From Armatimonadota bacterium (GTDB lineage Bacteria; Armatimonadota; HRBIN16): a stretch of DNA of 64,000 nt. A model generated the notes under the pieces. It ran no database searches. It was not told the DNA's origin and worked only from the letters and a program-made list of their open reading frames with translations. Location of the stretch: assembly GCA_963677485.1 (NCBI GenBank), contig OY781964.1, forward strand, positions 1,216,001 to 1,280,000. Direction: 5' to 3'. Both the position numbers and the translations under genes were made by a program. Within the stretch, counting starts at the first letter, position 1, and every line of letters starts with the position of its first letter. Below, one piece after another: positions 31,692-43,639 of this stretch.

Positions 31692-33290
31692 CTACCCCCA
31701 AACCGAGTGCAGCTCATGCACCTCCAGCCGTTCCACCTTCAGCTTGCCGGCAGAGCCGCACGCAAGGCTCACGGCCCGATGCTCCGCATCAGGGATCACG
31801 GCGACCGGCATGTACAGCTCGCCCTTGTTGCCGAATATCTCCAGCGTAGACCTATCGACCACCACACGCAGTTCCAGTTTACCGTCAACCGAAGTCAGTG
31901 GACCAACACATCCCTGGCAATACAACTGCTGTTTGTGGCCATCATAAAACACAGGAACTCCACGCACATCCAGTATCAGCCAGCCGCTTTTCGGCAGCAC
32001 ACAGCTCAGCAGGATGTCCATGCTCTCCGCACCCAGGTCATCGGTGATGGGGCGTGAGGCACTCACTGAAGCGTTCGTGTGCACGCGGCTCTTACCCCGC
32101 AGACGCTCGATCTCCTGCACCGGGTAAGGTGTCAGGCGCATTCCCTGCGGAGTGGTGCGCAGGCTGAGGCTGGTGGGGATCGTCATGCACTGGTTGAAGG
32201 GCATCCCCAGCGTGGTGCTCTGGCCCCAGCCGATTTGGATACGCCGGCCATCGGCGGCAGGGATATTGTTGTAGGTCTGGGCTGCGTAATAGGCGTTGCC
32301 GTATGTGTAGCGGATTTTGTCAGTATCTGGCGTGAACACCTTGCCGTCAAACTTCCCGATCATATAACCTCCGTCGGCTGCGCTGAGCACCCATCGGGTC
32401 TGAGACGGATTCCCATCTACCGGCAGCTCATACATATCGGGGCACTCGTAGAAGCCCCCGATGAAGCTCTGCCGCTCCCAGTGTTTCATGTTGGCGGAGG
32501 TAAAGAAGGCCACGCCCTGCGTGTTTTCCTCCACACGATAGACCGCGATCACATACTGTCGGCTTGGTGCGTGCCATAGAACCCGCGGATCGCGCCCATC
32601 ACCCGGATGTTTGATCATCGGATTGTCGGCACCGAGGCTCCAGGTGAGGCCGGCGTCGTTGCTGTAAGCCAGCACCTCTCCGCTGCCGGTGTCGGTCAGG
32701 AATGCGATCAGGCATTTCTCACTGCCGGTCTGGTATCCGGTGATGTTGTGCTCACCGACTATCGCACTGCCGCTGAAAGCCATCCCCTTACACTGCACAA
32801 ACTGGAATATAGCGGTGGGCAGCTCCTTCCAATGGAACAGGTCGGTGCTGACGGCATGGCCCCAGTGCATGTTGTCCCAGTTGAACCCGTAGGGGTTATG
32901 CTGATAGAACAGGTGGTATTCGCCCTTATAGTAAACCAGCCCATTGGGGTCGTTGTTCCATCCGCGGCGGGTGGTGAAATGCACCATGGGACGCAGCTTT
33001 TCGCGGTAGATGCTCTTTTCATCACGGATTTGCGCCGAGTTCTCAATACCGGTTAACAGCTTGGAGGCAGCCGGTAGGTCAGCCGCTTCGATGGTCGCGG
33101 ACTTGCCTTGATAGCTCTGCATGTCGGCGAACACCCAAAAGTCGGGTTGGCCATCGGCCAATTCGATTCCGAATTTGCGGACGGCTTGACCGTCGATGGT
33201 GATGGTCAGTTGTGCTTTCGGTGCCCCGTTCTTGACGGGAAGGTTCAGGTATCGCTCAGTTAATATGATTGTGCGTTGGATGTTCATCAT
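31692..33290 (-). CDS. GH32 levanase/beta-fructosidase
   Basis: WNNDPNG, WGHAVSTDL, FSGS, RDP, ECPD, YAAQT. Confidence 0.93.
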   Translation of the reverse strand: MMNIQRTIILTERYLNLPVKNGAPKAQLTITIDGQAVRKFGIELADGQPDFWVFADMQSYQGKSATIEAADLPAASKLLTGIENSAQIRDEKSIYREKLRPMVHFTTRRGWNNDPNGLVYYKGEYHLFYQHNPYGFNWDNMHWGHAVSTDLFHWKELPTAIFQFVQCKGMAFSGSAIVGEHNITGYQTGSEKCLIAFLTDTGSGEVLAYSNDAGLTWSLGADNPMIKHPGDGRDPRVLWHAPSRQYVIAVYRVEENTQGVAFFTSANMKHWERQSFIGGFYECPDMYELPVDGNPSQTRWVLSAADGGYMIGKFDGKVFTPDTDKIRYTYGNAYYAAQTYNNIPAADGRRIQIGWGQSTTLGMPFNQCMTIPTSLSLRTTPQGMRLTPYPVQEIERLRGKSRVHTNASVSASRPITDDLGAESMDILLSCVLPKSGWLILDVRGVPVFYDGHKQQLYCQGCVGPLTSVDGKLELRVVVDRSTLEIFGNKGELYMPVAVIPDAEHRAVSLACGSAGKLKVERLEVHELHSVWG

Positions 33291-33592: not shown

Positions 33593-34099
33593 TTGGATCA
33601 GGTGAATGAGTTCACCCACTCGATCATGCAAGACCCAACAGCATCACGGACAACGGAAGTCATCGAAAGCGAATGGCAGATCAGTGATGGTGGGATGCAA
33701 GATCAATCCAAGCTGGTGTTTGATAACGGTACAACCGGGGCAGCACTAACCCCGTCAGACGGTGTCGAAGGCGATGTGACCTTCGCAGATCCGATGCACT
33801 ATTACTACTATGGCATTGCGTCAGGCTATACTGGCGTTTTTGCTGCTCTGGCAGCATCACTAGGCGTGAAACTCAAGTGCATGACCACACGAGTGGAAGC
33901 CGATATGAGCCACTCACATGCAGTGAATGTCACACATGAGCCTGTTCTGGAATGTGTGAGGATGGTGCTGCGGATTGTCAGCGATTCGACCATCGCAAAA
34001 CTGCGTGAGGTTGAGGCGCTGGCACTTAAACAATGCCCCTCTGGATTGTTGTGTCGCCATCAGGTCAAACTGATGCCATGGTGTTCTGTCTCAGTATAG
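33593..34099 (+). CDS. OsmC-like protein, degenerate (true start possibly ATT at 33560)
   Basis: DPMHYYYYGIASGY at the PxxxxLxxLASC position, C-terminal QCP; homology appears to extend upstream (INHVDLDQV). Confidence 0.55.
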   Translation: MDQVNEFTHSIMQDPTASRTTEVIESEWQISDGGMQDQSKLVFDNGTTGAALTPSDGVEGDVTFADPMHYYYYGIASGYTGVFAALAASLGVKLKCMTTRVEADMSHSHAVNVTHEPVLECVRMVLRIVSDSTIAKLREVEALALKQCPSGLLCRHQVKLMPWCSVSV

Positions 34100-34353
34100 G
34101 AACACGACCCTTGGCCTCCCTCAACCTCGGGGGAGGCCTCGATCCGCATGATAACGACTTGCATAAACGATCTCGTCAGATATTTCACGCCTCAGATGGG
34201 AATGCGTTACAATGATACTGTTCGGTTGACGCCACTGTATCGAGCCTCATGCAGGCCATCACGACGCCAATATAAGTTCCGGACCGTATTCACAACACCT
34301 TAACTCTGCATTTCGAGGCATAGGGTGTGGTTTGCGCACTTGAAGGGTCTCAT

Positions 34354-36342
34354 ATGTTTGGTTTTGAGCTCACTAGCCAACCTGGCCTGTGGCTGTCGAT
34401 AACCCTTACCGCCTGGCTGCTTGTGGTACTCGTCGGAACCCTCCGGCGCAACTCCTCAGGATATCTTCTCGCGGTACCGGCATTGGCGGGCTGCCTGTTG
34501 GTGTTGGTCGCAGTATTTACCTCACGCAATGGCATGTTCCAACTCCCTCATTTTTTGCATCTGGGTGATGCACCGTTCCGCTTAGTAATCGACCCGCTCA
34601 GCCGATGGTTCCTCGGGATCATCGCCGTGGTCGGTGTTCCTGTGGTGCTGTTTTCCAGCGGATATCTGCACCACTTGCGCAAGCGGGTGGCTCTGGGTTA
34701 CGTGTGGGCCGCGCTGGCGGTGCTGTTTATCAGCATGTGTGCCGTGGTGCTGGCGGGTAATGCGATGTTGTTTTTGGTGGCTTGGGAGTGCATGGCGTTC
34801 AGCTCCTTCGTGCTGGTTGCGGCCGACCACGGCAACCGAGATATCCGTCGTGCTGCTCTGATCTACCTTGGCGCCACCAGAACCGGAACCGCCTTTTTGA
34901 TGGCCGGTTTCCTCTGGGCACACCAACTGACAGGCAGTTGGGAGTTCGCACAGTGGGCCCTGACCGGTGCATCGGCTCTCGGTCCTGCTTTGTTGATTCT
35001 GGTGGGTCTAGCCACTAAAGCGGGTTCCTGGCCATTTCACCTGTGGCTGCCCATCGCCCATCCAGCCGCACCCACGCCTGTGTCGGCCATCATGAGCGGT
35101 GTGATGATCAAAACCGCCATCTACGCCATGGCACGCTTCTTCGTGGTGGGTGACGCCTTTGTCCATCCCGCATTAGGTCCGGTGATTCTGCTGCTCGGGG
35201 CGGTATCCGCCTTCTGGGGAGTGATCTTCGCGCTGCTGCAGCACGACCTGAAGCGGCTGCTGGCCTACCACAGCGTGGAGAACATCGGCATCATCATGAT
35301 GGGGCTGGGCATATCATTGCTGGGTAAACAACACCACCTCCCGATACTGCAGCAATTAGGACTGGCTGCGGCACTGTTCCACACGCTCAACCATGCGGTG
35401 TTTAAAAGTCTGTTGTTCCTGGGCGCAGGGGCCATCGATGCCCGCACCCACCTGCGCGACATCGAGAAGCTGGGCGGACTGATCCGCCGGATGCCCTGGA
35501 CTGCTGGCGCGTTCATCGTGGGAAGTGCTGCCATCTGCGCTTTACCCCCCCTTAACGGCTTTGCCAGCGAATGGGTGCTTTACCAGGGCTTTTTCGAACT
35601 GGCAAAAGGCGGAGCGAGTGTGGCGATGCGGTTAGGTGGCCTGCTGTTGATGGGCTGGCTGGGGCTGATCGGTGCATTGGCCATCGCCTGTTTTGTGAAG
35701 GCGGTGGGTGTGGTATTTCTGGGCAACCCCCGCAGCCAGGAGGCCGAGAACGCCAAAGAGGTGGGCCAGAGCATGGTCACCGCCCAATGGTATCTGGCGG
35801 CTCTCTGCCTGCTGATTGGTCTTTCGGTGCCTGCGCTGATGAGACCACTCGGGGATGTGGTGGCGATGACCGGCCAGAGTTCGCTGCTAGCCGCCGCCTG
35901 GAGCCTACCCATGCTGCCACTGGCTGTGGCACTGCTGCTGGGGCTGGTTGCGGTGAGCCTTTGGATACGCCAACTGCAGAAGCTCCACCCCGAACGCCGC
36001 TTCATCACCTGGGAATGCGGGTTTGGTGAGTTGGGCCCACGCACGCAGTATACCGCCAGTAGTTTCGCCCAGCCGATCTCACGGTTGTTTGGAAAACTCT
36101 ACAGCTATTCGCTGGAGGTGCAGCGGGGTGGGGAGAACAAACAGCTCTTCGCGGAGACCGTGCAAGCGGAAACCCATCACGAAGCGCATCTGGAGACTCA
36201 TCTCTACGTGCCGCTGATAAAGAGTATTCAGCGGATTTCGGAGAAACTCATCATGCGCATCCAGGCTGGCAGCATCCACCAATATCTTCTCACCATGGCG
36301 CTGGTTCTGGCACTCTTACTATGGATAGGTCTCAACCGATGA
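34354..36342 (+). CDS. hyfB: HyfB-like antiporter-type membrane subunit (Ehr complex)
   Basis: FLVAWE, KAGSWPFHLWLPIAHPAAPTPVSAIMSG, LLAYHSVENIG, LPPLNGFASEW, TWECG, QYTASSFAQP. Confidence 0.88.
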   Translation: MFGFELTSQPGLWLSITLTAWLLVVLVGTLRRNSSGYLLAVPALAGCLLVLVAVFTSRNGMFQLPHFLHLGDAPFRLVIDPLSRWFLGIIAVVGVPVVLFSSGYLHHLRKRVALGYVWAALAVLFISMCAVVLAGNAMLFLVAWECMAFSSFVLVAADHGNRDIRRAALIYLGATRTGTAFLMAGFLWAHQLTGSWEFAQWALTGASALGPALLILVGLATKAGSWPFHLWLPIAHPAAPTPVSAIMSGVMIKTAIYAMARFFVVGDAFVHPALGPVILLLGAVSAFWGVIFALLQHDLKRLLAYHSVENIGIIMMGLGISLLGKQHHLPILQQLGLAAALFHTLNHAVFKSLLFLGAGAIDARTHLRDIEKLGGLIRRMPWTAGAFIVGSAAICALPPLNGFASEWVLYQGFFELAKGGASVAMRLGGLLLMGWLGLIGALAIACFVKAVGVVFLGNPRSQEAENAKEVGQSMVTAQWYLAALCLLIGLSVPALMRPLGDVVAMTGQSSLLAAAWSLPMLPLAVALLLGLVAVSLWIRQLQKLHPERRFITWECGFGELGPRTQYTASSFAQPISRLFGKLYSYSLEVQRGGENKQLFAETVQAETHHEAHLETHLYVPLIKSIQRISEKLIMRIQAGSIHQYLLTMALVLALLLWIGLNR

Positions 36343-37262
36343 ACACACTAGCATACCTCCCTCTGGTTTTGGTCAATGTGCTGATCGTGCCGCTGCTGCT
36401 GATGGGCATCATCCGCAAGGTGAAGGCCTTGATGCAAAACCGCATCGGCTCACCCATCCTGCAGCCGTTCTATGATTTCGCGAAGATGATTCGCAAGACC
36501 GAGACGGTCAGCCAGACCGCAAGCTGGGTGTTCGCATGGGCGCCGCGGATCGGACTGGTCACGGCCGTGCTCGTGTCGATCATGGTGCCATGGAGCGGTC
36601 TGCTTATGCCCAGCAACTGGGCGATGGTCACGAACTTTTTACTGGTGCTCTATCTGCTGTCTCTCAGCAAGTTCTTTACGATGCTGGCTGCCATTGATAC
36701 CGGCTCAGCGTTTGGCGGGCTGGGTGCCAGCCGTGAGGCCACCATCTCGATGCTGGTGGAGCCCACTCTGGTGATGGGTCTGGCTGCGCTGGCCCTCGGT
36801 GCGGGCAGCACCAATCTGCTGAGCATCTTCTCGGGGCCCGTGAGTCCGGCAGTGGCCATCCTGGTGGGTTGTGCGCTGGTGGTCGCCGCGCTGGCTGAGC
36901 TCTCGCGAATGCCTGTAGATGACCCCACCACGCACCTGGAACTGACCATGGTGCATGAGGCGATGATACTGGAGAACAGCGGACGTGGACTGGCGTTCAT
37001 TGAGTATGCCTCCGCATTACGGTGCTGCATCTTCCTGGGATTGGCATCTCAGACGCTCATTCGGGCGATACCGGGTTACCACACCATCCCGCTGCTCACG
37101 CAGTATGGCCTCGGGTTGTTGGCTGTTGTGCTGATGGGGGTCGCGGTGGCGGTAGCCGAGGGTGTGCTGGTGAAGTTGAAATGGCGCAGCGTGCCCAACT
37201 TCCTGGTGTTCGCGACGGTGATGAGTATGCTGGCGGCATTGATCGCAGCGGCTCAGGCTTAG
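36339..37262 (+). CDS. hyfC: HyfC/NuoH-like membrane subunit
   Basis: QNRIGSPILQPFYD, GGLGASRE, RMPVDDPTTHLELTMVHEAMILENSG; ATGA overlap with hyfB. Confidence 0.9.
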   Translation: MNTLAYLPLVLVNVLIVPLLLMGIIRKVKALMQNRIGSPILQPFYDFAKMIRKTETVSQTASWVFAWAPRIGLVTAVLVSIMVPWSGLLMPSNWAMVTNFLLVLYLLSLSKFFTMLAAIDTGSAFGGLGASREATISMLVEPTLVMGLAALALGAGSTNLLSIFSGPVSPAVAILVGCALVVAALAELSRMPVDDPTTHLELTMVHEAMILENSGRGLAFIEYASALRCCIFLGLASQTLIRAIPGYHTIPLLTQYGLGLLAVVLMGVAVAVAEGVLVKLKWRSVPNFLVFATVMSMLAALIAAAQA

Positions 37263-37282
37263 CGAGAGGAAGGCGTAAAGAT

Positions 37283-37927
37283 ATGAACCTGTCTCAAATC
37301 GACCTGTTGGCCTCAGGAGCCGCCATTCTGGCGGTGTGGGCCTGTGGGGTCAGCCGCATCAAGGTGCAGATCAGGCTTTTGGCCCTGCAAACCGCCTTCC
37401 TGGCGGCCATCTGCCTTCTTCTGGGCCTGCACGAGGGCAGCAAGCAGTTGCTGGTGCTGTCAGCCGTGGTGCTTCTCGTCAAGGCGGTGGGCATTCCGGT
37501 ATTCCTGCAGTGGTCGGCCAGACATATGGGTGTCGAACGCGACCGAGGAATCGGGGTGAACTTGACACCAGGACTGATCATCGGATTCTGTCTGCTGGCG
37601 GTGGGCTACTTCATGGCCCCGCAGTTCGCGGTGCCCGGCATGGGTAACAGCGGTTCGGCCGGTATGGGCTTTGCGCTGATGCTGCTCGGGATGCTGCAAA
37701 TGACCTCGCGGCGGTTGGCCCTCAGCCAGGTGATCGGCTTCTTGACCATGGAGAATGGCATCTTCCTGTACAGCCTGACTCAGACCAAGCATATGCCGAT
37801 TCTGCTGGAAATGGGCAGTGTGTTCGAGGTGCTGATCGCGGTCATGATCGCTGGCATGGTGCTGTTCCGCATCAACCGAAGTTTTGAGCACATCGATGTC
37901 ACGGATATGCAGGAGTTACGCCATTGA
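37283..37927 (+). CDS. hyfE: HyfE-like membrane subunit
   Basis: KAVGIP, QVIGFLTMENGI, MPILLEMG, RINRSFEHIDV. Confidence 0.88.
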   Translation: MNLSQIDLLASGAAILAVWACGVSRIKVQIRLLALQTAFLAAICLLLGLHEGSKQLLVLSAVVLLVKAVGIPVFLQWSARHMGVERDRGIGVNLTPGLIIGFCLLAVGYFMAPQFAVPGMGNSGSAGMGFALMLLGMLQMTSRRLALSQVIGFLTMENGIFLYSLTQTKHMPILLEMGSVFEVLIAVMIAGMVLFRINRSFEHIDVTDMQELRH

Positions 37928-39360
37928 TCAGCCTGATACTTCTGCCACTCATCATCGCGGTGCTGGGCCTGATGCCCCGTATGTCACGCCATATCGCCGT
38001 CATCAGTGCGAGCCTGATGCTGCTGCAATTGCCGGTGGCCGTCTGGATCTGTCTGCCCGCCTTCCGTGGGCAAACGGTGGTGGCTGGTAACTTTGCGGTA
38101 GATGGTGTTGGGGCCGTGTTCACCATCATCACTACACTGGTGGCACTCGCAGCGATGCTCCAAGCCGCCTTGCAGTTGCCGGCTGAGCGTCTGACGGAAC
38201 ACAAAACCAGCGACAAAGCCTACTGCGGCTTCTTCTCGCTCTCCGCGCTGTTCTTGATCGCGATGTATGCGGTGCCATTGTCTCAGCATCTGGGCGTGAT
38301 CTGGATGGCGATTGAAGCCACCACGTTGATGTCCGCCCCGCTGGTGTATTACCATCGCAGCCGCAGCTCGCTGGAAGCCACCTGGAAGTATCTGCTGCTT
38401 TGCAGCGTGGGCATCGCCTTTGCGCTGTTCGGCACGGTGATGCTGTTCGCCTCCCAGCACTCGTTCAACGGCGAGTCGATGATGCTGGCCGACTTGACGG
38501 CGCACGCCAAACAGCTCGATCCCAAGCTGCTGAGCCTGGGATTCATTTTCTGCCTGCTGGGATACGGCACCAAGGCCGGTATCTTCCCGCTGCATAACTG
38601 GCTGCCAGATGCGCATAGTGAAGCCCCTGCACCCTCGTCTGCGATGCTCTCCGGGTCGTTGTTGAACTGCGCTTTGGTGGCTATCTGGCGGCTGTCGCAG
38701 TTGATGGCCGCGGCCGGTCAGGCCGATCTGGTGCGTGATCTTCTGGTGCCTGCGGGAGCAATCACTGTGATCGCCGCCAGCCTGATGCTGGTGCGACAGC
38801 ACGACTTGAAGCGGATGCTGGCCTATTCCAGTGTGGAACACATCGGATTGCTGACGCTTGCGATTGGTATCGGCTCCACACCGTTGTTCATGCTGCACGC
38901 ATTCAACCACAGCATCATCAAGGTCGCCCTGTTCTTGATGGCGGGCAGTATCCTGCACGTCTACGGAACCAAGCAGTTGTCCAAACTGGGCGGGCTGCTG
39001 AAGTCCTCGCCGTTGTGGGGCGCAGTGTTAATGTTGGCAGGTTTCGCCATCGCTGGCAGCCCGCCGTTTGGCACCTTCATCAGCGAATGGCTGCTGCTGC
39101 GCGACACGCTATCAGCGGGCGAGGTTGCGGCCACCGTCACGGTGATTGTTGGACTGACGATCACCTTCATCGCCATCACAACCCATCTGGGCAAAGTGGT
39201 GTTCGGTATCGAGCGGCCGTTAGTCCACGGCACGCCACAGCGAAGCTGGGCCTATGTGCCTGTCTGCCTGCTGGTGCTCAGCCTGCTGGCCGGTGTGGCG
39301 ATTGCCCCGAATGTGATGAGCAGGCTGGTCATGCTGGCCCAACTGGGGGGTGCCCGATGA
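37924..39360 (+). CDS. hyfF: HyfF-like antiporter-type membrane subunit
   Basis: WMAIEATTL, SLEATWKYLLLCSVGI, GYGTKAGIFPLHNWLPDAHSEAP, KRMLAYSSVEH; TTGA overlap. Confidence 0.9.
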   Translation: MISLILLPLIIAVLGLMPRMSRHIAVISASLMLLQLPVAVWICLPAFRGQTVVAGNFAVDGVGAVFTIITTLVALAAMLQAALQLPAERLTEHKTSDKAYCGFFSLSALFLIAMYAVPLSQHLGVIWMAIEATTLMSAPLVYYHRSRSSLEATWKYLLLCSVGIAFALFGTVMLFASQHSFNGESMMLADLTAHAKQLDPKLLSLGFIFCLLGYGTKAGIFPLHNWLPDAHSEAPAPSSAMLSGSLLNCALVAIWRLSQLMAAAGQADLVRDLLVPAGAITVIAASLMLVRQHDLKRMLAYSSVEHIGLLTLAIGIGSTPLFMLHAFNHSIIKVALFLMAGSILHVYGTKQLSKLGGLLKSSPLWGAVLMLAGFAIAGSPPFGTFISEWLLLRDTLSAGEVAATVTVIVGLTITFIAITTHLGKVVFGIERPLVHGTPQRSWAYVPVCLLVLSLLAGVAIAPNVMSRLVMLAQLGGAR

Positions 39361-40856
39361 ACCACAACTTCAAGTGTATCGATGAGACCCCTGCCAATCT
39401 GGCGAAAGCTGCCAGGAGCTGGCTGAGCAAACCGGGTCGGCGTTATGGTCACTTCACCGCCCGAGTGTGTGATGATGGCCGACTGTGCCTGGTAATGCTG
39501 CTGCTTGACCTCAACACCAGCGGAGGGGTGATCATGAGCGCAGCTCTGGCTGATGGCGAAACCGAATACCCGGCTATCACCGCAGAAATACCGGCAGCTC
39601 ACTGGGCGGAGCGGGCAGTGGGCGACTTCTTTGGGTTGCTGCCCATTGGCCATCCGCGCTGGAAGTCCGTGATCCTGCATGACGGCATCTGGCCAAACGA
39701 CCTCTACCCGCTGTCACCAAACGCAGGCCATCCGCGCGGACTGTATGAGTTCATGCTGGTCACCGGTGAGGGGATTCATGAGATACCCGTGGGCCCTATC
39801 CACGCGGGGATCATCGAGCCTGGCCATTTCCGGTTTAGCTGTTCGGGTGAGGTGATCACCAACCTGAGTATCCGGCTGGGATACCTTCACCGCGGCGTGG
39901 AAAAGCGGCTGGCGGAGCTTCCCTGGCAGCAGACTCGCTTCCTGGCGGAGTCGGCTAGCGCCGACACGGCCCTGGGCAACGCATTGGCCCATAGCGTCGC
40001 GATGGAGCAGTTGCTGGGCATCACGGCACCGGCACGGGCACAGTATCTGCGCACCATCGGATTGGAAATCGAGCGGCTGGGCAACCATGTCGGCGACCTG
40101 GGAGCACTGGCGGGTGATGTGGGCTACAGTGCCGGAGCGGGGTTGTTCCCGCCGATGCGCGGCGCGGCCTTGAGCCTGGCGATGCTGTTGAGCGGATCGC
40201 GGCGTCAGCGGTATTACGTGAAGCCCGGCGAAGTGGCGCGCGATCTGCCAGATGACCGGCGGTTGAAGATGCTGACCGGCCTGGATGAGATGGAGACGCG
40301 TCTGCACGATTTGATCCCACTGTTACTGAAGAACTCATCTGTCATGGAGCGCATGGAAGGTACCGGAGTGGTCTCGCTGGCGGTAGCTCGTGAGCTGGGG
40401 CTAGTGGGCCCCGCGGCACGTGCCAGCGGCCGCAGTTACGACGCCCGCCGCGTATACGCTCATGGTGTGTATCCGGAGTTCGCTCCCGAGCTGGTCAAAC
40501 AGCAAGAGGGCGATGTGATGGCGCGTACCCGTCAGCGAGCGGACGAGATATGGAGCAGCATCGCGATCATCCGGCAACTGCTGCAGTCGCTGCCAGAGGG
40601 AGCTATATGCGAAGAATGCACACACCTTCCGCTGGCACCGAACAGCAGCGGTGTGGGGATTGTGGAGGCCTGGCGAGGCGAACTGCTGCACTGGGTATTC
40701 ACCGATGCTTCAGGAAATATAAGCAGGTATGCCATCAAAGACCCCAGTTTCAACAACTGGACGGGTCTGTCAATGGCGGTGCGCGGCAACCTTGTGGCAG
40801 ATTTTCCTGTCTGCAACAAGAGCTTCAACTTATCCTACAGCGGGAATGACCTTTAG
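39357..40856 (+). CDS. ehrL: Ehr large subunit (NuoCD/HyfG-like, lacks Ni-binding CxxC motifs)
   Basis: VGPIHAGIIEPGHFRF, GYLHRGVEK; ESASADT in place of RxCGxC; C-terminus DFPVCNKSFNLSYSGNDL in place of DPCxxC. Confidence 0.9.
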   Translation: MNHNFKCIDETPANLAKAARSWLSKPGRRYGHFTARVCDDGRLCLVMLLLDLNTSGGVIMSAALADGETEYPAITAEIPAAHWAERAVGDFFGLLPIGHPRWKSVILHDGIWPNDLYPLSPNAGHPRGLYEFMLVTGEGIHEIPVGPIHAGIIEPGHFRFSCSGEVITNLSIRLGYLHRGVEKRLAELPWQQTRFLAESASADTALGNALAHSVAMEQLLGITAPARAQYLRTIGLEIERLGNHVGDLGALAGDVGYSAGAGLFPPMRGAALSLAMLLSGSRRQRYYVKPGEVARDLPDDRRLKMLTGLDEMETRLHDLIPLLLKNSSVMERMEGTGVVSLAVARELGLVGPAARASGRSYDARRVYAHGVYPEFAPELVKQQEGDVMARTRQRADEIWSSIAIIRQLLQSLPEGAICEECTHLPLAPNSSGVGIVEAWRGELLHWVFTDASGNISRYAIKDPSFNNWTGLSMAVRGNLVADFPVCNKSFNLSYSGNDL

Positions 40857-40868
40857 GAGGGCAGTATC

Positions 40869-41624
40869 ATGCGAAACACATTGCTATCGGTGTTGAAAAC
40901 CGGCCTGCTCACTCAGAAAGAGCTGTTCCCTGAGCTGCCAGAGGAGGCCAACGGACTGCCAACGGTGACGCAGACTCCATGCGACGGGGGCTCCTGCGGG
41001 CAGTGCGCAGACCTCTGCCCAACCCATGCGGTTGCGGTTTCCGATGGCGGCGTGTCGCTGGACCTGGGGTGCTGCATCGGCTGTCAGGCGTGCGTGGAGG
41101 TCTGCCCAACGGGCTCGATTGTGCGCAACCGGTCGACGAAGATCGCCTCGCTGAGCCGTGAGGGTTTGGTTCTTACGGCCAGTTCGCTAGCACCCACGGA
41201 CAGTAAGCCAGTGAATCGGCCATTTCACCGCTCGCTGCATGTACGCGCGGTCTCGACGGGGGATAGTGCCAGCGATCTTGAGATGATTGCCAGCACCAAC
41301 GCGGTGTTCGACATCACGCAGTTTGGCGTTCATTTCGTGGCTTCACCGCGGTTTGCCGATGCGCTGATGGTCACCGGCCCGGTGCCGCACGCCATGCAGG
41401 AGCCTTTACGACGCTGTTACCAGGCGATGGCCGAACCTCGGCTGGTGATCGCGCTGGGAACCTCCGCCATCAGTGGCGGGCTGCATTCCGGTGGCTACGC
41501 CGAAGCGAATGGTGTAGACGCCGTGCTTCCGGTGGACTGTTATATCCCCGGCGATCCGCCGCACCCCTGGAGCCTGCTCTACGGTGTGCTGCTGGCGATG
41601 GGTAGGGATCCATCTACCCTTTGA
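40869..41624 (+). CDS. ehrS: Ferredoxin (2x[4Fe-4S])-fused Ehr small subunit (NuoB/HyfI-like) with proximal-cluster Cys ligands substituted
   Basis: CDGGSCGQCADLCP and CIGCQACVEVCP intact. NuoB-like ASPRFADALMVTGPV present, but with TGDSASD, GTSAISGG and IPGDPP. Confidence 0.88.
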   Translation: MRNTLLSVLKTGLLTQKELFPELPEEANGLPTVTQTPCDGGSCGQCADLCPTHAVAVSDGGVSLDLGCCIGCQACVEVCPTGSIVRNRSTKIASLSREGLVLTASSLAPTDSKPVNRPFHRSLHVRAVSTGDSASDLEMIASTNAVFDITQFGVHFVASPRFADALMVTGPVPHAMQEPLRRCYQAMAEPRLVIALGTSAISGGLHSGGYAEANGVDAVLPVDCYIPGDPPHPWSLLYGVLLAMGRDPSTL

Positions 41625-42711
41625 TGCTGCGTGCCACCTCCGCGGCTAGCGCGAACTTCTCCACAGTGACGCCGGGCGGGCAGCTATCGCTGTTCGCCAG
41701 CAGGAACGGCCCGCCGGCACCTTCCGCGATCACCTGTTCCACATAGCTGCCGAAGCTTTCGATGGGCTCATTCAGGAAGCGCACCGGCTCGATGCCACCA
41801 ATGATGCCCATTTTATCGCCGCAGACCTGCCTGATCTCCTTGATCTCGATATTACCTGTGGGGGCTGGTGAGGCACTCTCGACTGCGTATACTCCGCCGT
41901 CGACCATCTGCTCCACTAAATAGCGCAGATGACCACAGGCGTGCTGCACGTACCTCTTGCCATTCGCTTTGGCGATATCGCAGTAGGCTTTAATCTCAGG
42001 TGCGATGTATTTGGCATATTGCCGAGGGCTGTAGTTCTGTGTGCTGCTGTCTTCAAAGGTCAGGAAGTATTGGTAGTCACTTTGGGCGGCGAGTCTGGCG
42101 CATTCCAGATCATTCACCATCATCGCCTGCCATAACTCATCGACCAGCTCCGGCTCATCCTGCATCATATACACCAGTTCCTCTGTGCCCACATAATGCT
42201 CTACCATCGCCTGGAATGCAGTCTTGCCACGGAAACACATCATGGCGAGGGAGAGCCCCTCGTTGGAGCCGGGGTCATTCAGCCAGTTCGTCGCGACCTG
42301 CGGTTGCGCTTCAAAACGGGTGTGCTGTTCGATCCATAGCAGGGTCTTCAAGTCTTCAGGCGACTTGCATGGGTGCTCCACCAGGAACATGGTGCCGCCC
42401 GCATCATTGGTGCGTCGCCAGGTATGGTGCAGACTGCCGACTGGGGTGATGAGCTCCTGGTGGTGCCCGCCCGGTCGTTCGGTCACGATGGATTCCACAC
42501 CGTCTTGAGCGACCGACACGGACATTGGCGCACCTCGCCACAAGGGGTCAGCACCGATCATCTTGTGGAACGGCAGTTGCCCCATCTGCTGTATCTCAGC
42601 AGGAAAATACTCCCAGACATAAGCTAGAAATGGTGAAAACGGCATATGGTCCACAGGCTTTCCCGCGAGGGCAGCCTCGATACGTTCTTTAGAGGTCATT
42701 TCTGGCAGCAT
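41614..42711 (-). CDS. Uroporphyrinogen decarboxylase-like family protein
   Basis: MTSKERIEAALAGKPVDHMP, EDSST, HACG, GGIEP, SDSCP. Confidence 0.85.
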   Translation of the reverse strand: MLPEMTSKERIEAALAGKPVDHMPFSPFLAYVWEYFPAEIQQMGQLPFHKMIGADPLWRGAPMSVSVAQDGVESIVTERPGGHHQELITPVGSLHHTWRRTNDAGGTMFLVEHPCKSPEDLKTLLWIEQHTRFEAQPQVATNWLNDPGSNEGLSLAMMCFRGKTAFQAMVEHYVGTEELVYMMQDEPELVDELWQAMMVNDLECARLAAQSDYQYFLTFEDSSTQNYSPRQYAKYIAPEIKAYCDIAKANGKRYVQHACGHLRYLVEQMVDGGVYAVESASPAPTGNIEIKEIRQVCGDKMGIIGGIEPVRFLNEPIESFGSYVEQVIAEGAGGPFLLANSDSCPPGVTVEKFALAAEVARSIKG

Positions 42712-42946: not shown

Positions 42947-43639
42947 ATGGACGCCGAACAAAAACCGCGGAAGCAGTTTGCCGGAGCTAACCTTGAAGGT
43001 GCAGAGTTGCGCATGGCGGATCTTGCCGGAGCGAATATGGCCGAAGCCAATCTGAAAGGTGCCAACCTTGAAGGTGCCGACCTCACTTCGGCCGACCTGA
43101 GCGGGGCGACCTTGGTGGAAGTCTACGCCAGAACCCTGGACGCAGCCGATGCCGACTTCAGCGGAGCGGACATGAGCGGGATCAATCTGGAGCTTGCCAA
43201 CCTGGCAGGAGCAGACTTAAGCGGCTGCGAGCTGACCGATGCCTATATGCGTGGTGCCGACATGACTGGCTGCAGCCTGGTGGGCGCCGATCTCTGCCAT
43301 GCCAATCTGGAAAAGGCAAAACTTCTTGAGGTGGACATGCAGAGTGCACTGCTCAAAGGAGCCTCCATGCAGTTTGCGCGATTGAAAGGCGCCAGTCTTC
43401 AGGGTGCCAACTTCAGCAGTGCCAGCCTAGAAAATGCCGACCTCAGCAAGGCGAACCTCACGGGTGCTGAGCTGGACGGCGTCTGCTTGCGAGGGGCGAA
43501 CCTCACCGGTTCGGTATTGTCTGGAGCGAACCTCAGCGGAGCTGACCTTCAGGATGCGGATTTTACCGGTGCCGAAGTGCGCGACATGGTGCTGGATGGG
43601 GCGAATATGACTGGGGTGAAAGGGCTGATTTTGAAATGA
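42947..43639 (+). CDS. Pentapeptide repeat protein
   Basis: Continuous A(D/N)LxG repeats; RBS ggagg. Confidence 0.92.
   Translation: MDAEQKPRKQFAGANLEGAELRMADLAGANMAEANLKGANLEGADLTSADLSGATLVEVYARTLDAADADFSGADMSGINLELANLAGADLSGCELTDAYMRGADMTGCSLVGADLCHANLEKAKLLEVDMQSALLKGASMQFARLKGASLQGANFSSASLENADLSKANLTGAELDGVCLRGANLTGSVLSGANLSGADLQDADFTGAEVRDMVLDGANMTGVKGLILK

Follow-up and report, generated by a model that had tools for sequence, protein, structure and literature searches.

A 64,000-nucleotide stretch of DNA from an Armatimonadota bacterium (assembly GCA_963677485.1, contig OY781964.1, positions 1,216,001 to 1,280,000; hereafter the window) was found to carry a six-gene operon for a complex of the Ehr (energy-converting, or Ech-hydrogenase-related) type, the small subunit of which, EhrS, has none of the Cys residues that bind the proximal [4Fe-4S] cluster in related proteins. 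The six open reading frames (ORFs) lie on the same strand in the order HyfB-HyfC-HyfE-HyfF-EhrL-EhrS, fill positions 34354-41624 of the window, and are all open (Table 1). HyfB and HyfC overlap, as do HyfE and HyfF and then HyfF and EhrL, each of these last two pairs by 4 nt, with gaps of 20 nt between HyfC and HyfE and 12 nt between EhrL and EhrS. A gene set of the complex I or group 4 type that includes both antiporter-type and NuoH-type membrane subunits, which is a membership feature of Ehr, is present.

The ligand columns in the NuoB domain of EhrS were set by alignment to HycG (7z0s_G, E = 7e-25), to Nqo6 (2fug_6), and to relatives that contain all four Cys. The proximal [4Fe-4S] ligands, a four-Cys feature of group 4 [NiFe]-hydrogenases, are absent at all four positions, which are occupied by D132, S135, S199, and D229. 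The tandem Cys residues of Nqo6 align to A134 and S135 and its later Cys residues to S199 and D229, so the ligands of cluster N2 are likewise missing. The ferredoxin part of EhrS matches NF009053 (E = 3e-9) and the solved HycF (7z0s_F, E = 6e-9) and has the two four-Cys motifs by which NuoI and HycF are recognized. In an AlphaFold2 model of EhrS built with 40 homologues, the mean predicted local distance difference test score was 87, with values of 90-97 over most of the NuoB domain, and the modelled domain superposed on HycG, NDUFS7, and MbhJ with a root mean square deviation (rmsd) of 1.4-1.9 Å over ∼126-130 columns; the fold is predicted to be retained. One further Cys in this domain, C183 (in RRCYQAM; 41415-41417), is near-invariant in 120 homologues, at a position where HycG and Nqo6 have Trp or Val.

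For EhrL, the best solved match was HycE (7z0s_E, E = 2e-67), with all four Ni-Fe Cys residues substituted. Neither the L1 (RxCGxC) nor the L2 (DPCxxC) feature of group 4 [NiFe]-hydrogenases is found in EhrL, and PF00374 was matched only at E = 6e-4, below its cut-off. The loss of the Ni-Fe ligands also holds in the orthologues. Conservation of the pocket was counted on 36 orthologue rows, in which some genomes are present twice. In the L1 region (AES.S.DT), D203 is found in 36 of 36 rows and S201 and T204 in 33 each; in the L2 region (CNKSFNLSYSGND), S493, Y494, and G496 are each found in all 36; and the pocket motif GPIHAGIIEPGHF is invariant or nearly so. Much of this conserved pocket is common to Ehr loci in which the small subunit still contains its Cys residues.

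A preliminary description of the locus had read from it an intact hyfB-C-E-F-ehrL-ehrS operon, an EhrL lacking both Ni-binding CxxC motifs, an EhrS in which the four proximal Cys residues had become Asp, Ser, Ser, and Asp, and N-terminal ferredoxin motifs that were retained. The ORFs together with their Pfam and NCBIfam assignments bear out the first of these points, and the alignments bear out the others.

Table 1. Features of the Ehr operon, with positions in the window.
Feature	Position	Strand	Evidence
Sigma-70-like promoter match TTCACG-18-TACAAT, weak	34184..34213	+	9/12 matches; sole match in 33900-42000
HyfB-like antiporter-type subunit (NuoL/MrpA class), 662 aa	34354..36342	+	PF00361 E 2e-54; NF005086 hydrogenase-4 subunit B E 5e-166, below its cut-off
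HyfC/HycD/NuoH-like membrane subunit, 313 aa	36321..37262	+	PF00146 E 2e-33
HyfE-like small membrane subunit, 214 aa	37283..37927	+	NF008556 hydrogenase-4 membrane subunit E 2e-19, below its cut-off
HyfF-like antiporter-type subunit (NuoN/M, MrpD class), 478 aa, TTG start	37924..39360	+	PF00361 E 1.5e-52; NF005044 E 2e-100
EhrL, large subunit with fused NuoC and NuoD parts, 499 aa, no Ni-Fe ligands	39357..40856	+	PF00329 and PF00346
Former L1 Ni-Fe motif ESASADTAL, residues 198-206	39948..39974	+	HycE RVCGICGF aligns to S199-L206; Cys replaced by S201, T204
Former L2 Ni-Fe motif NLSYSGND, residues 491-498	40827..40850	+	HycE DPCYSC aligns to NLSYSG; Cys replaced by S493, G496
EhrS, 251 aa: HycF/NuoI-like 2x[4Fe-4S] domain (∼aa 1-115) fused to NuoB domain (∼aa 120-245)	40869..41624	+	PF01058 E 3.5e-20
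Two ferredoxin-type Cys motifs, C38, C43, C46, C50 and C69, C72, C75, C79	40980..41105	+	All eight Cys in 120/120 homologues
Former proximal-cluster ligand positions 1 and 2: D132 (41262-41264), S135 (41271-41273)	41262..41273	+	Alignment
Former proximal-cluster ligand position 3: S199	41463..41465	+	Alignment
Former proximal-cluster ligand position 4: D229, within PGDPP	41553..41555	+	Alignment

To describe what occupies the former ligand columns across the family, the best 120 of 2107 matches to EhrS (57-100% identity) were used. Position 1 was Asp in 79, Cys in 22, and Ser in 19 of these homologues; position 2 was Ser in 52, Thr in 36, Ala in 16, and Cys in 14; position 3 was Ser in 86, Asp in 18, Cys in 8, and Gly in 4; and position 4 was Asp in 99, Glu in 8, Cys in 6, and Ser in 4. 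No Cys at any of the four columns was found in 86 of the 120. The NuoB domain is otherwise highly conserved, with a median column entropy of 0.39 bits, whereas positions 1 to 4 rank only 106th, 121st, 110th, and 96th of its 128 columns by entropy. Among more distant orthologues taken from genomes, Asn, Ala, His, Gly, Gln, and Pro also occur at the ligand columns, with Asn, Ala, His, or Gly at position 4. Such variability suggests a relaxed positional constraint and not a fixed four-ligand site. The proposal in the preliminary description that four coordinated swaps had created one defined site is not supported by this comparison.

A wider sample was drawn by a HMMER scan of 1.84 billion representatives (clusters at 50% identity), from which the best 150 of 6931 matches were taken; with the query this gave 151 rows, of which 141 had all four columns aligned. 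Of these 141 nearest representatives, 91 retain all four Cys residues, 18 retain some, and 32 are Cys-free. The EhrS of the window is therefore not unique, and the statement in the preliminary description that these Cys residues are normally kept in Ehr is borne out only in part by these counts and by those for the closest homologues. On a quick maximum likelihood tree of the NuoB domain (128 columns), eight changes to the Cys-free state were needed, at least seven of which are forced by well-supported branches. The clade of the window (15 rows, support 99) contains four-Cys, partial (CTCC, CTSC, CTCS, CVCS, and CCSP), and Cys-free members. The other Cys-free clades (DEDS/DDDS, DTDN, and SEGD/NEGD) have only four Cys residues in the N-terminal domain, enough for one cluster, and the cluster members of 10 representatives from these clades are almost all metagenome entries. 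On a separate tree of the family (124 rows), positions 1 to 4 change at least 10, 30, 14, and 12 times, respectively; this tree is poorly resolved, with long outgroup branches, and supports neither an order of Cys losses nor reversals.

Cys-containing Ehr loci were found by querying with a four-Cys sister sequence (P0125), which gave only relatives at 39-50% identity and did not recover the locus of P0125. In five metagenomic loci (L054-L057 and L059), a four-Cys EhrS is encoded beside an EhrL that already lacks the Ni-Fe Cys residues, and in one of them, L055, the gene order is that of the window. Because the four-Cys EhrS is found together with an EhrL without Ni-Fe ligands, loss of the Ni-Fe site, which is common to all Ehr, came before that of the proximal cluster, and the latter occurred several times over. 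The Cys-free EhrS is a recurrent loss, not a singular invention.

The residues that replace Cys are far from random in charge. Among the 86 Cys-free family members, exactly two Asp or Glu residues are found at the ligand columns in 83 and one in the remaining 3, against a background Asp plus Glu frequency of 10%, and as the number of remaining Cys residues falls from three to none, that of acids rises from none to two. Where position 1 is Ser, position 3 is Asp in 18 of 19 sequences; where position 1 is Asp, position 3 is Asp in 0 of 79, a swap that may amount to only about two events on the tree. The 32 Cys-free representatives, which come from several clades, show two or three acids in 28 cases and no basic residue, and none of the 141 representatives has a basic residue at these columns. 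Most of the independent Cys-free clades have Asp at position 1. Oxygen-donor and chiefly acidic residues are thus over-represented at the former ligand columns, a point on which the preliminary description is supported. This bias suggests that the emptied pocket is preferentially lined with negative charge. A [4Fe-4S] centre with its four thiolates has a net negative charge, and the carboxylates may make up for the charge that went with the cluster and thiolates; alternatively, they may bind a divalent cation, and the data fit both options.

The membrane arm has retained the residues expected of an ion-moving machine. HyfB, for which an alternative GTG start lies at 34327, is best matched among solved structures by HycC (7z0s_C, E = 2e-70), and HyfF matches MbhH (6cfw_H, E = 2e-31). 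The conserved ion-path Glu, Lys, and His motifs are retained in HyfB, as are the antiporter Glu, Lys, and His motifs in HyfF. HyfC, in which another in-frame ATG (36339) shares nucleotides with the stop codon of HyfB, matches HycD (7z0s_D, E = 1e-25) and MbhM (6cfw_M, E = 3e-22) and retains the loop motifs that are common to both. For HyfE, the Pfam search gave no match.

Taken together, these results are consistent with loss of the cluster and occupation of its pocket by an acid-lined filler, in a complex that would probably move ions while no electrons arrive at the EhrL pocket, a reading to which we give about an even chance. Loss of the Ni-Fe site came first, and the NuoB-type subunit of this lineage then lost its proximal [4Fe-4S] cluster as well. 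Small and acidic side chains, usually including two carboxylates, fill the vacated pocket. They may be a negatively charged filler under loose constraint or may make up a loose pocket for a cation, and they are probably not a precise four-ligand metal centre. Beyond the alignments, we infer a lack of electron delivery, a movement of ions, and a role for the remaining clusters. In solved relatives, a chain of three clusters is found with steps of ∼10-12 Å, and the physiological limit for electron tunnelling is ∼14 Å. With steps of this size, removal of the proximal cluster would leave the nearest remaining cluster well beyond ∼14 Å from the EhrL pocket, too far for physiological electron transfer. 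The conclusion that we favour, at about even odds, is that the complex does not reduce a substrate in this pocket. The membrane arm (HyfB, HyfF, HyfC, and HyfE), together with the conserved polar pocket of EhrL, would probably move or gate H+ or Na+, and the retained ferredoxin-like clusters would probably be a structural element or a redox input or sensor.

Several points weigh against this reading. The distance argument uses the cofactor spacing of solved relatives and not a model of this complex. The eight invariant ferredoxin Cys residues argue for a continued importance of redox chemistry or of Fe-S binding, since it is not obvious why an antiporter that worked wholly independently of redox state should keep them. 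The trees rest on short alignments in which many forks are unresolved. The two-acid rule is weaker further out: of 20 Cys-free orthologues derived from genomes, 13 have two acids and 7 have one. The acid bias and the frequent Asp at position 1 are also what is expected of a divalent-cation or metal site, and, as the four positions line one cavity, any two carboxylates could serve, so that the variability of the columns leaves room for a metal. Complementarity with Mrp gives no argument either way: among the 301 genomes that were sampled across the host phylum, 20 contain MnhE (PF01899), and although these include 0 of the 27 carriers of the operon, the chance expectation is only 1.8.

An unlikely alternative is that a new metal or cation site was formed, in which a mononuclear or divalent metal such as Fe, Mn, Zn, Mg, or Ca is bound by the carboxylates and hydroxyls that now occupy the ligand positions. 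The metal would take over from the proximal cluster, whether to relay electrons, to act in catalysis, or to serve as a coupling ion site, and would be fed by the two [4Fe-4S] clusters. The convergent enrichment in acids and the exclusion of basic residues described above would both fit such a site, as would the invariance of the upstream Fe-S domain and the purifying selection on the gene. By the genetic code, moreover, a change from Cys to Asp would need two base changes, yet it recurs in separate clades. A precise site is harder to reconcile with ligand columns that are among the least conserved of the domain, that admit Ala, Gly, Asn, Gln, Pro, and His, and that offer a single acid in more than a third of the 20 orthologues just mentioned (7 of 20). 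The positions of the acids also vary by clade (DSSD, STDD, DEDS, DTDN, and SEGD), and no metal-handling gene is linked to the operon. The more specific claim, that the paired carboxylates are a true divalent-metal (Fe, Mn, or Zn) or coupling-ion site that has convergently replaced the [4Fe-4S] cluster in at least seven Ehr lineages, is one that we regard with greater doubt. If it were true, a metal or coupling-ion site fed or gated by two [4Fe-4S] clusters would be a new kind of coupling centre in an ion pump of the complex I type, and Ehr would stand as an energy converter of a distinct class, the core of which works by non-Fe-S chemistry.

It is also possible, if improbable, that electron transfer continues and bypasses the NuoB site: reduced ferredoxin, for example from an enzyme like pyruvate:ferredoxin oxidoreductase (PFOR), would load the EhrS clusters, from which electrons would pass to an external or unlinked partner or to a surface acceptor, with the rest of the complex serving as a membrane anchor or coupling module. 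The invariance of the eight ferredoxin-domain Cys residues and the presence of a PFOR-like gene in the same genome would fit such a route, and Ehr is proposed to work with separate oxidoreductases such as formate dehydrogenase in the portions available of two papers (PMC6349859, PMC7894505). Partner genes were sought by clustering the flanking ORFs of 14 loci and running Pfam on 14 flanking proteins. No linked electron-input module or shared redox partner adjoins the operon in the flanks of 12 loci, in which only an ArsR-type regulator recurs, and the extreme conservation of the EhrL pocket would be left unexplained by a bypass.

The loss of Cys residues could in principle reflect a relic operon in the course of pseudogenization, with neutral damage at the ligand columns. 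The variability of these columns, the patchy presence of the operon in the phylum (27 of 301 genomes), and an in-frame TGA in EhrS of one orthologue (G203; L027/L050, G203:C143) could be cited in favour of decay. The TGA itself may stem from a sequencing error, mark a pseudogene, or be recoded. Pairwise Nei-Gojobori ratios of nonsynonymous to synonymous substitution (dN/dS) against a genome of the same genus (G141), at dS values of 0.25-0.57, are 0.067 for HyfB, 0.108 for HyfC, 0.052 for HyfE, 0.060 for HyfF, 0.073 for EhrL, and 0.101 for EhrS, and resemble those of neighbouring genes. The same operon is found in G141 with protein identities of 90-97%, and the gene order HyfB-C-E-F-EhrL-EhrS is kept in 14 of 14 related loci (13 genomes and one named record of a metagenome-assembled genome), down to ∼45-55% identity. 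The operon is intact and under purifying selection, in agreement with the earlier view that selection and not decay was at work. Decay was therefore rejected as very improbable: it is contradicted by the low dN/dS in all six genes, the open frames, the conservation of the NuoB domain outside the ligand columns, and the conserved order.

Nothing turned up in favour of a sequencing or assembly artefact at the Cys codons, and this explanation, to which we assign a negligible chance, was rejected because Logan contigs from four runs in two studies, which may include the source data of the assembly, show 0 differences over 40869-41624, and because the same residues occur in a 90%-identical genome and in dozens of more distant homologues. 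The pattern is thus present outside this assembly, a check that the preliminary description had called for along with that of the sequencing data, and the Cys-less state is a trait of the lineage and not an assembly quirk.

Full-length fused EhrS orthologues (E <= 1.6e-72) define the 27 carrier genomes, which are scattered over about a dozen families; the remaining matches in the 301 genomes are ordinary NuoB genes. Within the family to which the window belongs, orthologues are found only in its own genus (3 of 3 genomes there). Named EhrS homologues come mostly from Armatimonadota metagenome-assembled genomes. Elsewhere in the genome of the window are a canonical NuoB with all four Cys residues, a separate NuoD, and the PFOR-like gene, as well as genes for HypD and for the paired subunits, large and small, of a [NiFe]-hydrogenase (G000:C1:3969298-3971153 and 4794644-4795684). 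Hydrogenase maturation would therefore be available even though the Ehr large subunit lacks Ni-Fe ligands. A second, distant type of Ehr-like operon was found in the phylum at three loci, L051 (G010:C83), L052 (G136:C48), and L053 (G241:C293). Its order is HyfC-E-F-L-S-B in L051; HyfE was not detected in L052, and L053 contains only HyfC, a HyfF/HyfB-like gene, EhrL, and EhrS. The small subunits of this type have one ferredoxin motif only and four (L052), three (L053), or none (L051) of the ligand Cys residues. Both operon types are carried by G010 and G241.

A scan for promoters and terminators around the operon gave nothing above chance. The single promoter match in 33900-42000 (Table 1) is no evidence of function, because shuffled sequences gave a mean of 2.8 over the same interval. 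The G+C content is 0.586-0.611 in the operon (34001-42000) and 0.53-0.56 in the 4 kb on each side. With the patchy distribution in the phylum, this shift makes lateral acquisition of the operon possible.

Just upstream of the operon is a 168-aa ORF (33593-34099, + strand) with a weak OsmC-like match (25.7 bits, below the cut-off of 27.5). It is the fastest-evolving ORF of the neighbourhood, with 65% identity and a dN/dS of 0.20 against G141, and does not adjoin the operon in other genera. Further upstream, a 532-aa ORF (31692-33290, - strand) is 92% identical in G141 and, from a motif, is a candidate member of glycoside hydrolase family 32. On the other side, a gene of the uroporphyrinogen decarboxylase (URO-D) family (41614-42711, - strand; PF01208, E = 1e-14) converges on EhrS, with an overlap of 11 nt between the 3' ends, and is a common neighbour only in the same-genus genome. 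It is followed by a 230-aa protein (42947-43639, + strand) made almost wholly of pentapeptide repeats (PF00805, E = 3e-64). The recurrent ArsR-family helix-turn-helix regulator is encoded immediately upstream of HyfB and in the same orientation in L044 (16107-16574), L045 (3197-3553), and L049 (15729-16085). These loci belong to a divergent subgroup of orthologues, in which the regulator was confirmed by Pfam in three loci and placed by BLAST clustering only in a fourth, L047.

The discarding of the cluster at least seven times among the 141 nearest representative clusters, while strong constraint persisted on the membrane arm, on the pocket of EhrL, and on the outer clusters, is a natural experiment, in which the function under selection in these lineages would need no electrons at the classical active site. 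This suggests that machines like complex I can work without an electron path to the active site. It would narrow the hypotheses for Ehr, and pairs of Cys-containing and Cys-free complexes would offer a test system for the coupling of the peripheral arm to ion movement. The convergent replacement by acids may also provide a new, small, and testable structural rule for what takes the place of a buried Fe-S cluster.

Ehr complexes were reportedly named in Geobacter and are said to have been surveyed by Marreiros et al. in 2013. In the portions available of the literature, Ehr is described as a Hyf/Nuo-like gene set with a large subunit that lacks the Ni-Fe CxxC motifs and a function that is unknown (PMC3569383, PMC6349859, PMC12342949, PMC4378227). 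Ehr is present in many phyla and is there reported from Nitrospira, ammonia-oxidizing archaea, Geobacter, Melainabacteria, Sulfobacillus, and Methylacidiphilum; wherever its function is commented on, it is given as unknown, never investigated, or only proposed. Neither a Cys-less EhrS nor a place for the proximal [4Fe-4S] site in the definition of Ehr is mentioned in those portions, which do not extend to the founding papers (Marreiros 2013, Coppi 2005) and their supplements, where an earlier description is possible. The operon of the window resembles Ehr in its gene set with antiporter-type subunits and in a large subunit without Ni-Fe CxxC motifs, and the EhrL proteins of metagenomic loci L055-L059 share GP(I/V)HAG(I/V)IEPGHF and NKSFNLSYxGND with that of the window. 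It differs in the fusion of the NuoI-like and NuoB-like subunits and in having 0 of 4 proximal-cluster Cys residues, whereas L054-L057 and L059 keep all four.

Among solved complexes, Escherichia coli formate hydrogenlyase (FHL)/hydrogenase-4 (7z0s/7z0t) gave the best matches for every subunit, through HycC, HycD, HycE, HycG, and HycF; MBH, MBS, Mrp, and complex I came next. FHL and the complex of the window both have a large subunit in which NuoC and NuoD are fused, but the latter lacks the Ni-Fe ligands and the proximal cluster, its equivalents of HycF and HycG are fused, and its operon contains no formate dehydrogenase, HyfA, HyfD, HyfJ, or maturation genes. Like Pyrococcus MBH (6cfw) and MBS (6u8y), it has a peripheral module on an Mrp-like arm, and its best-scoring solved matches include MbhH, MbhM, MbhL, and MbhJ. 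In MBH and MBS the active site is reached through a chain of three clusters, whereas the complex of the window lacks the last cluster and the metal ligands of the active site.

The likeness to Mrp (6z16, 7qru) is confined to the large subunits: HyfB and HyfF match MrpA and MrpD with E-values of 1e-27 to 1e-43 and have the charged ion-path residues conserved. A redox-independent role in moving ions would resemble that of Mrp, but the complex of the window has in addition a cytoplasmic NuoCD-NuoIB arm and a NuoH-like subunit. Of the Mrp-specific small subunits (MrpE, MrpF, and MrpG), the one searched for, MrpE (MnhE, PF01899), was not found in the genome of the window. Complex I shares the NuoB fold (rmsd ∼1.4-1.5 Å to NDUFS7) and homologous core subunits. 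In contrast to complex I, EhrS lacks the ligands of cluster N2, and the positions of Nqo4 (2fug_4) that we take to be the quinone-site residues H38 and Y87 align to residues of EhrL that are neither His nor Tyr. The operon has six genes only, with no NuoEFG, NuoA, or NuoJ, and the flanks of 12 related loci add none. As judged from its sequence, the complex of the window carries the features stated for Ehr and lacks the ligand features that define the group 4 hydrogenases and complex I.

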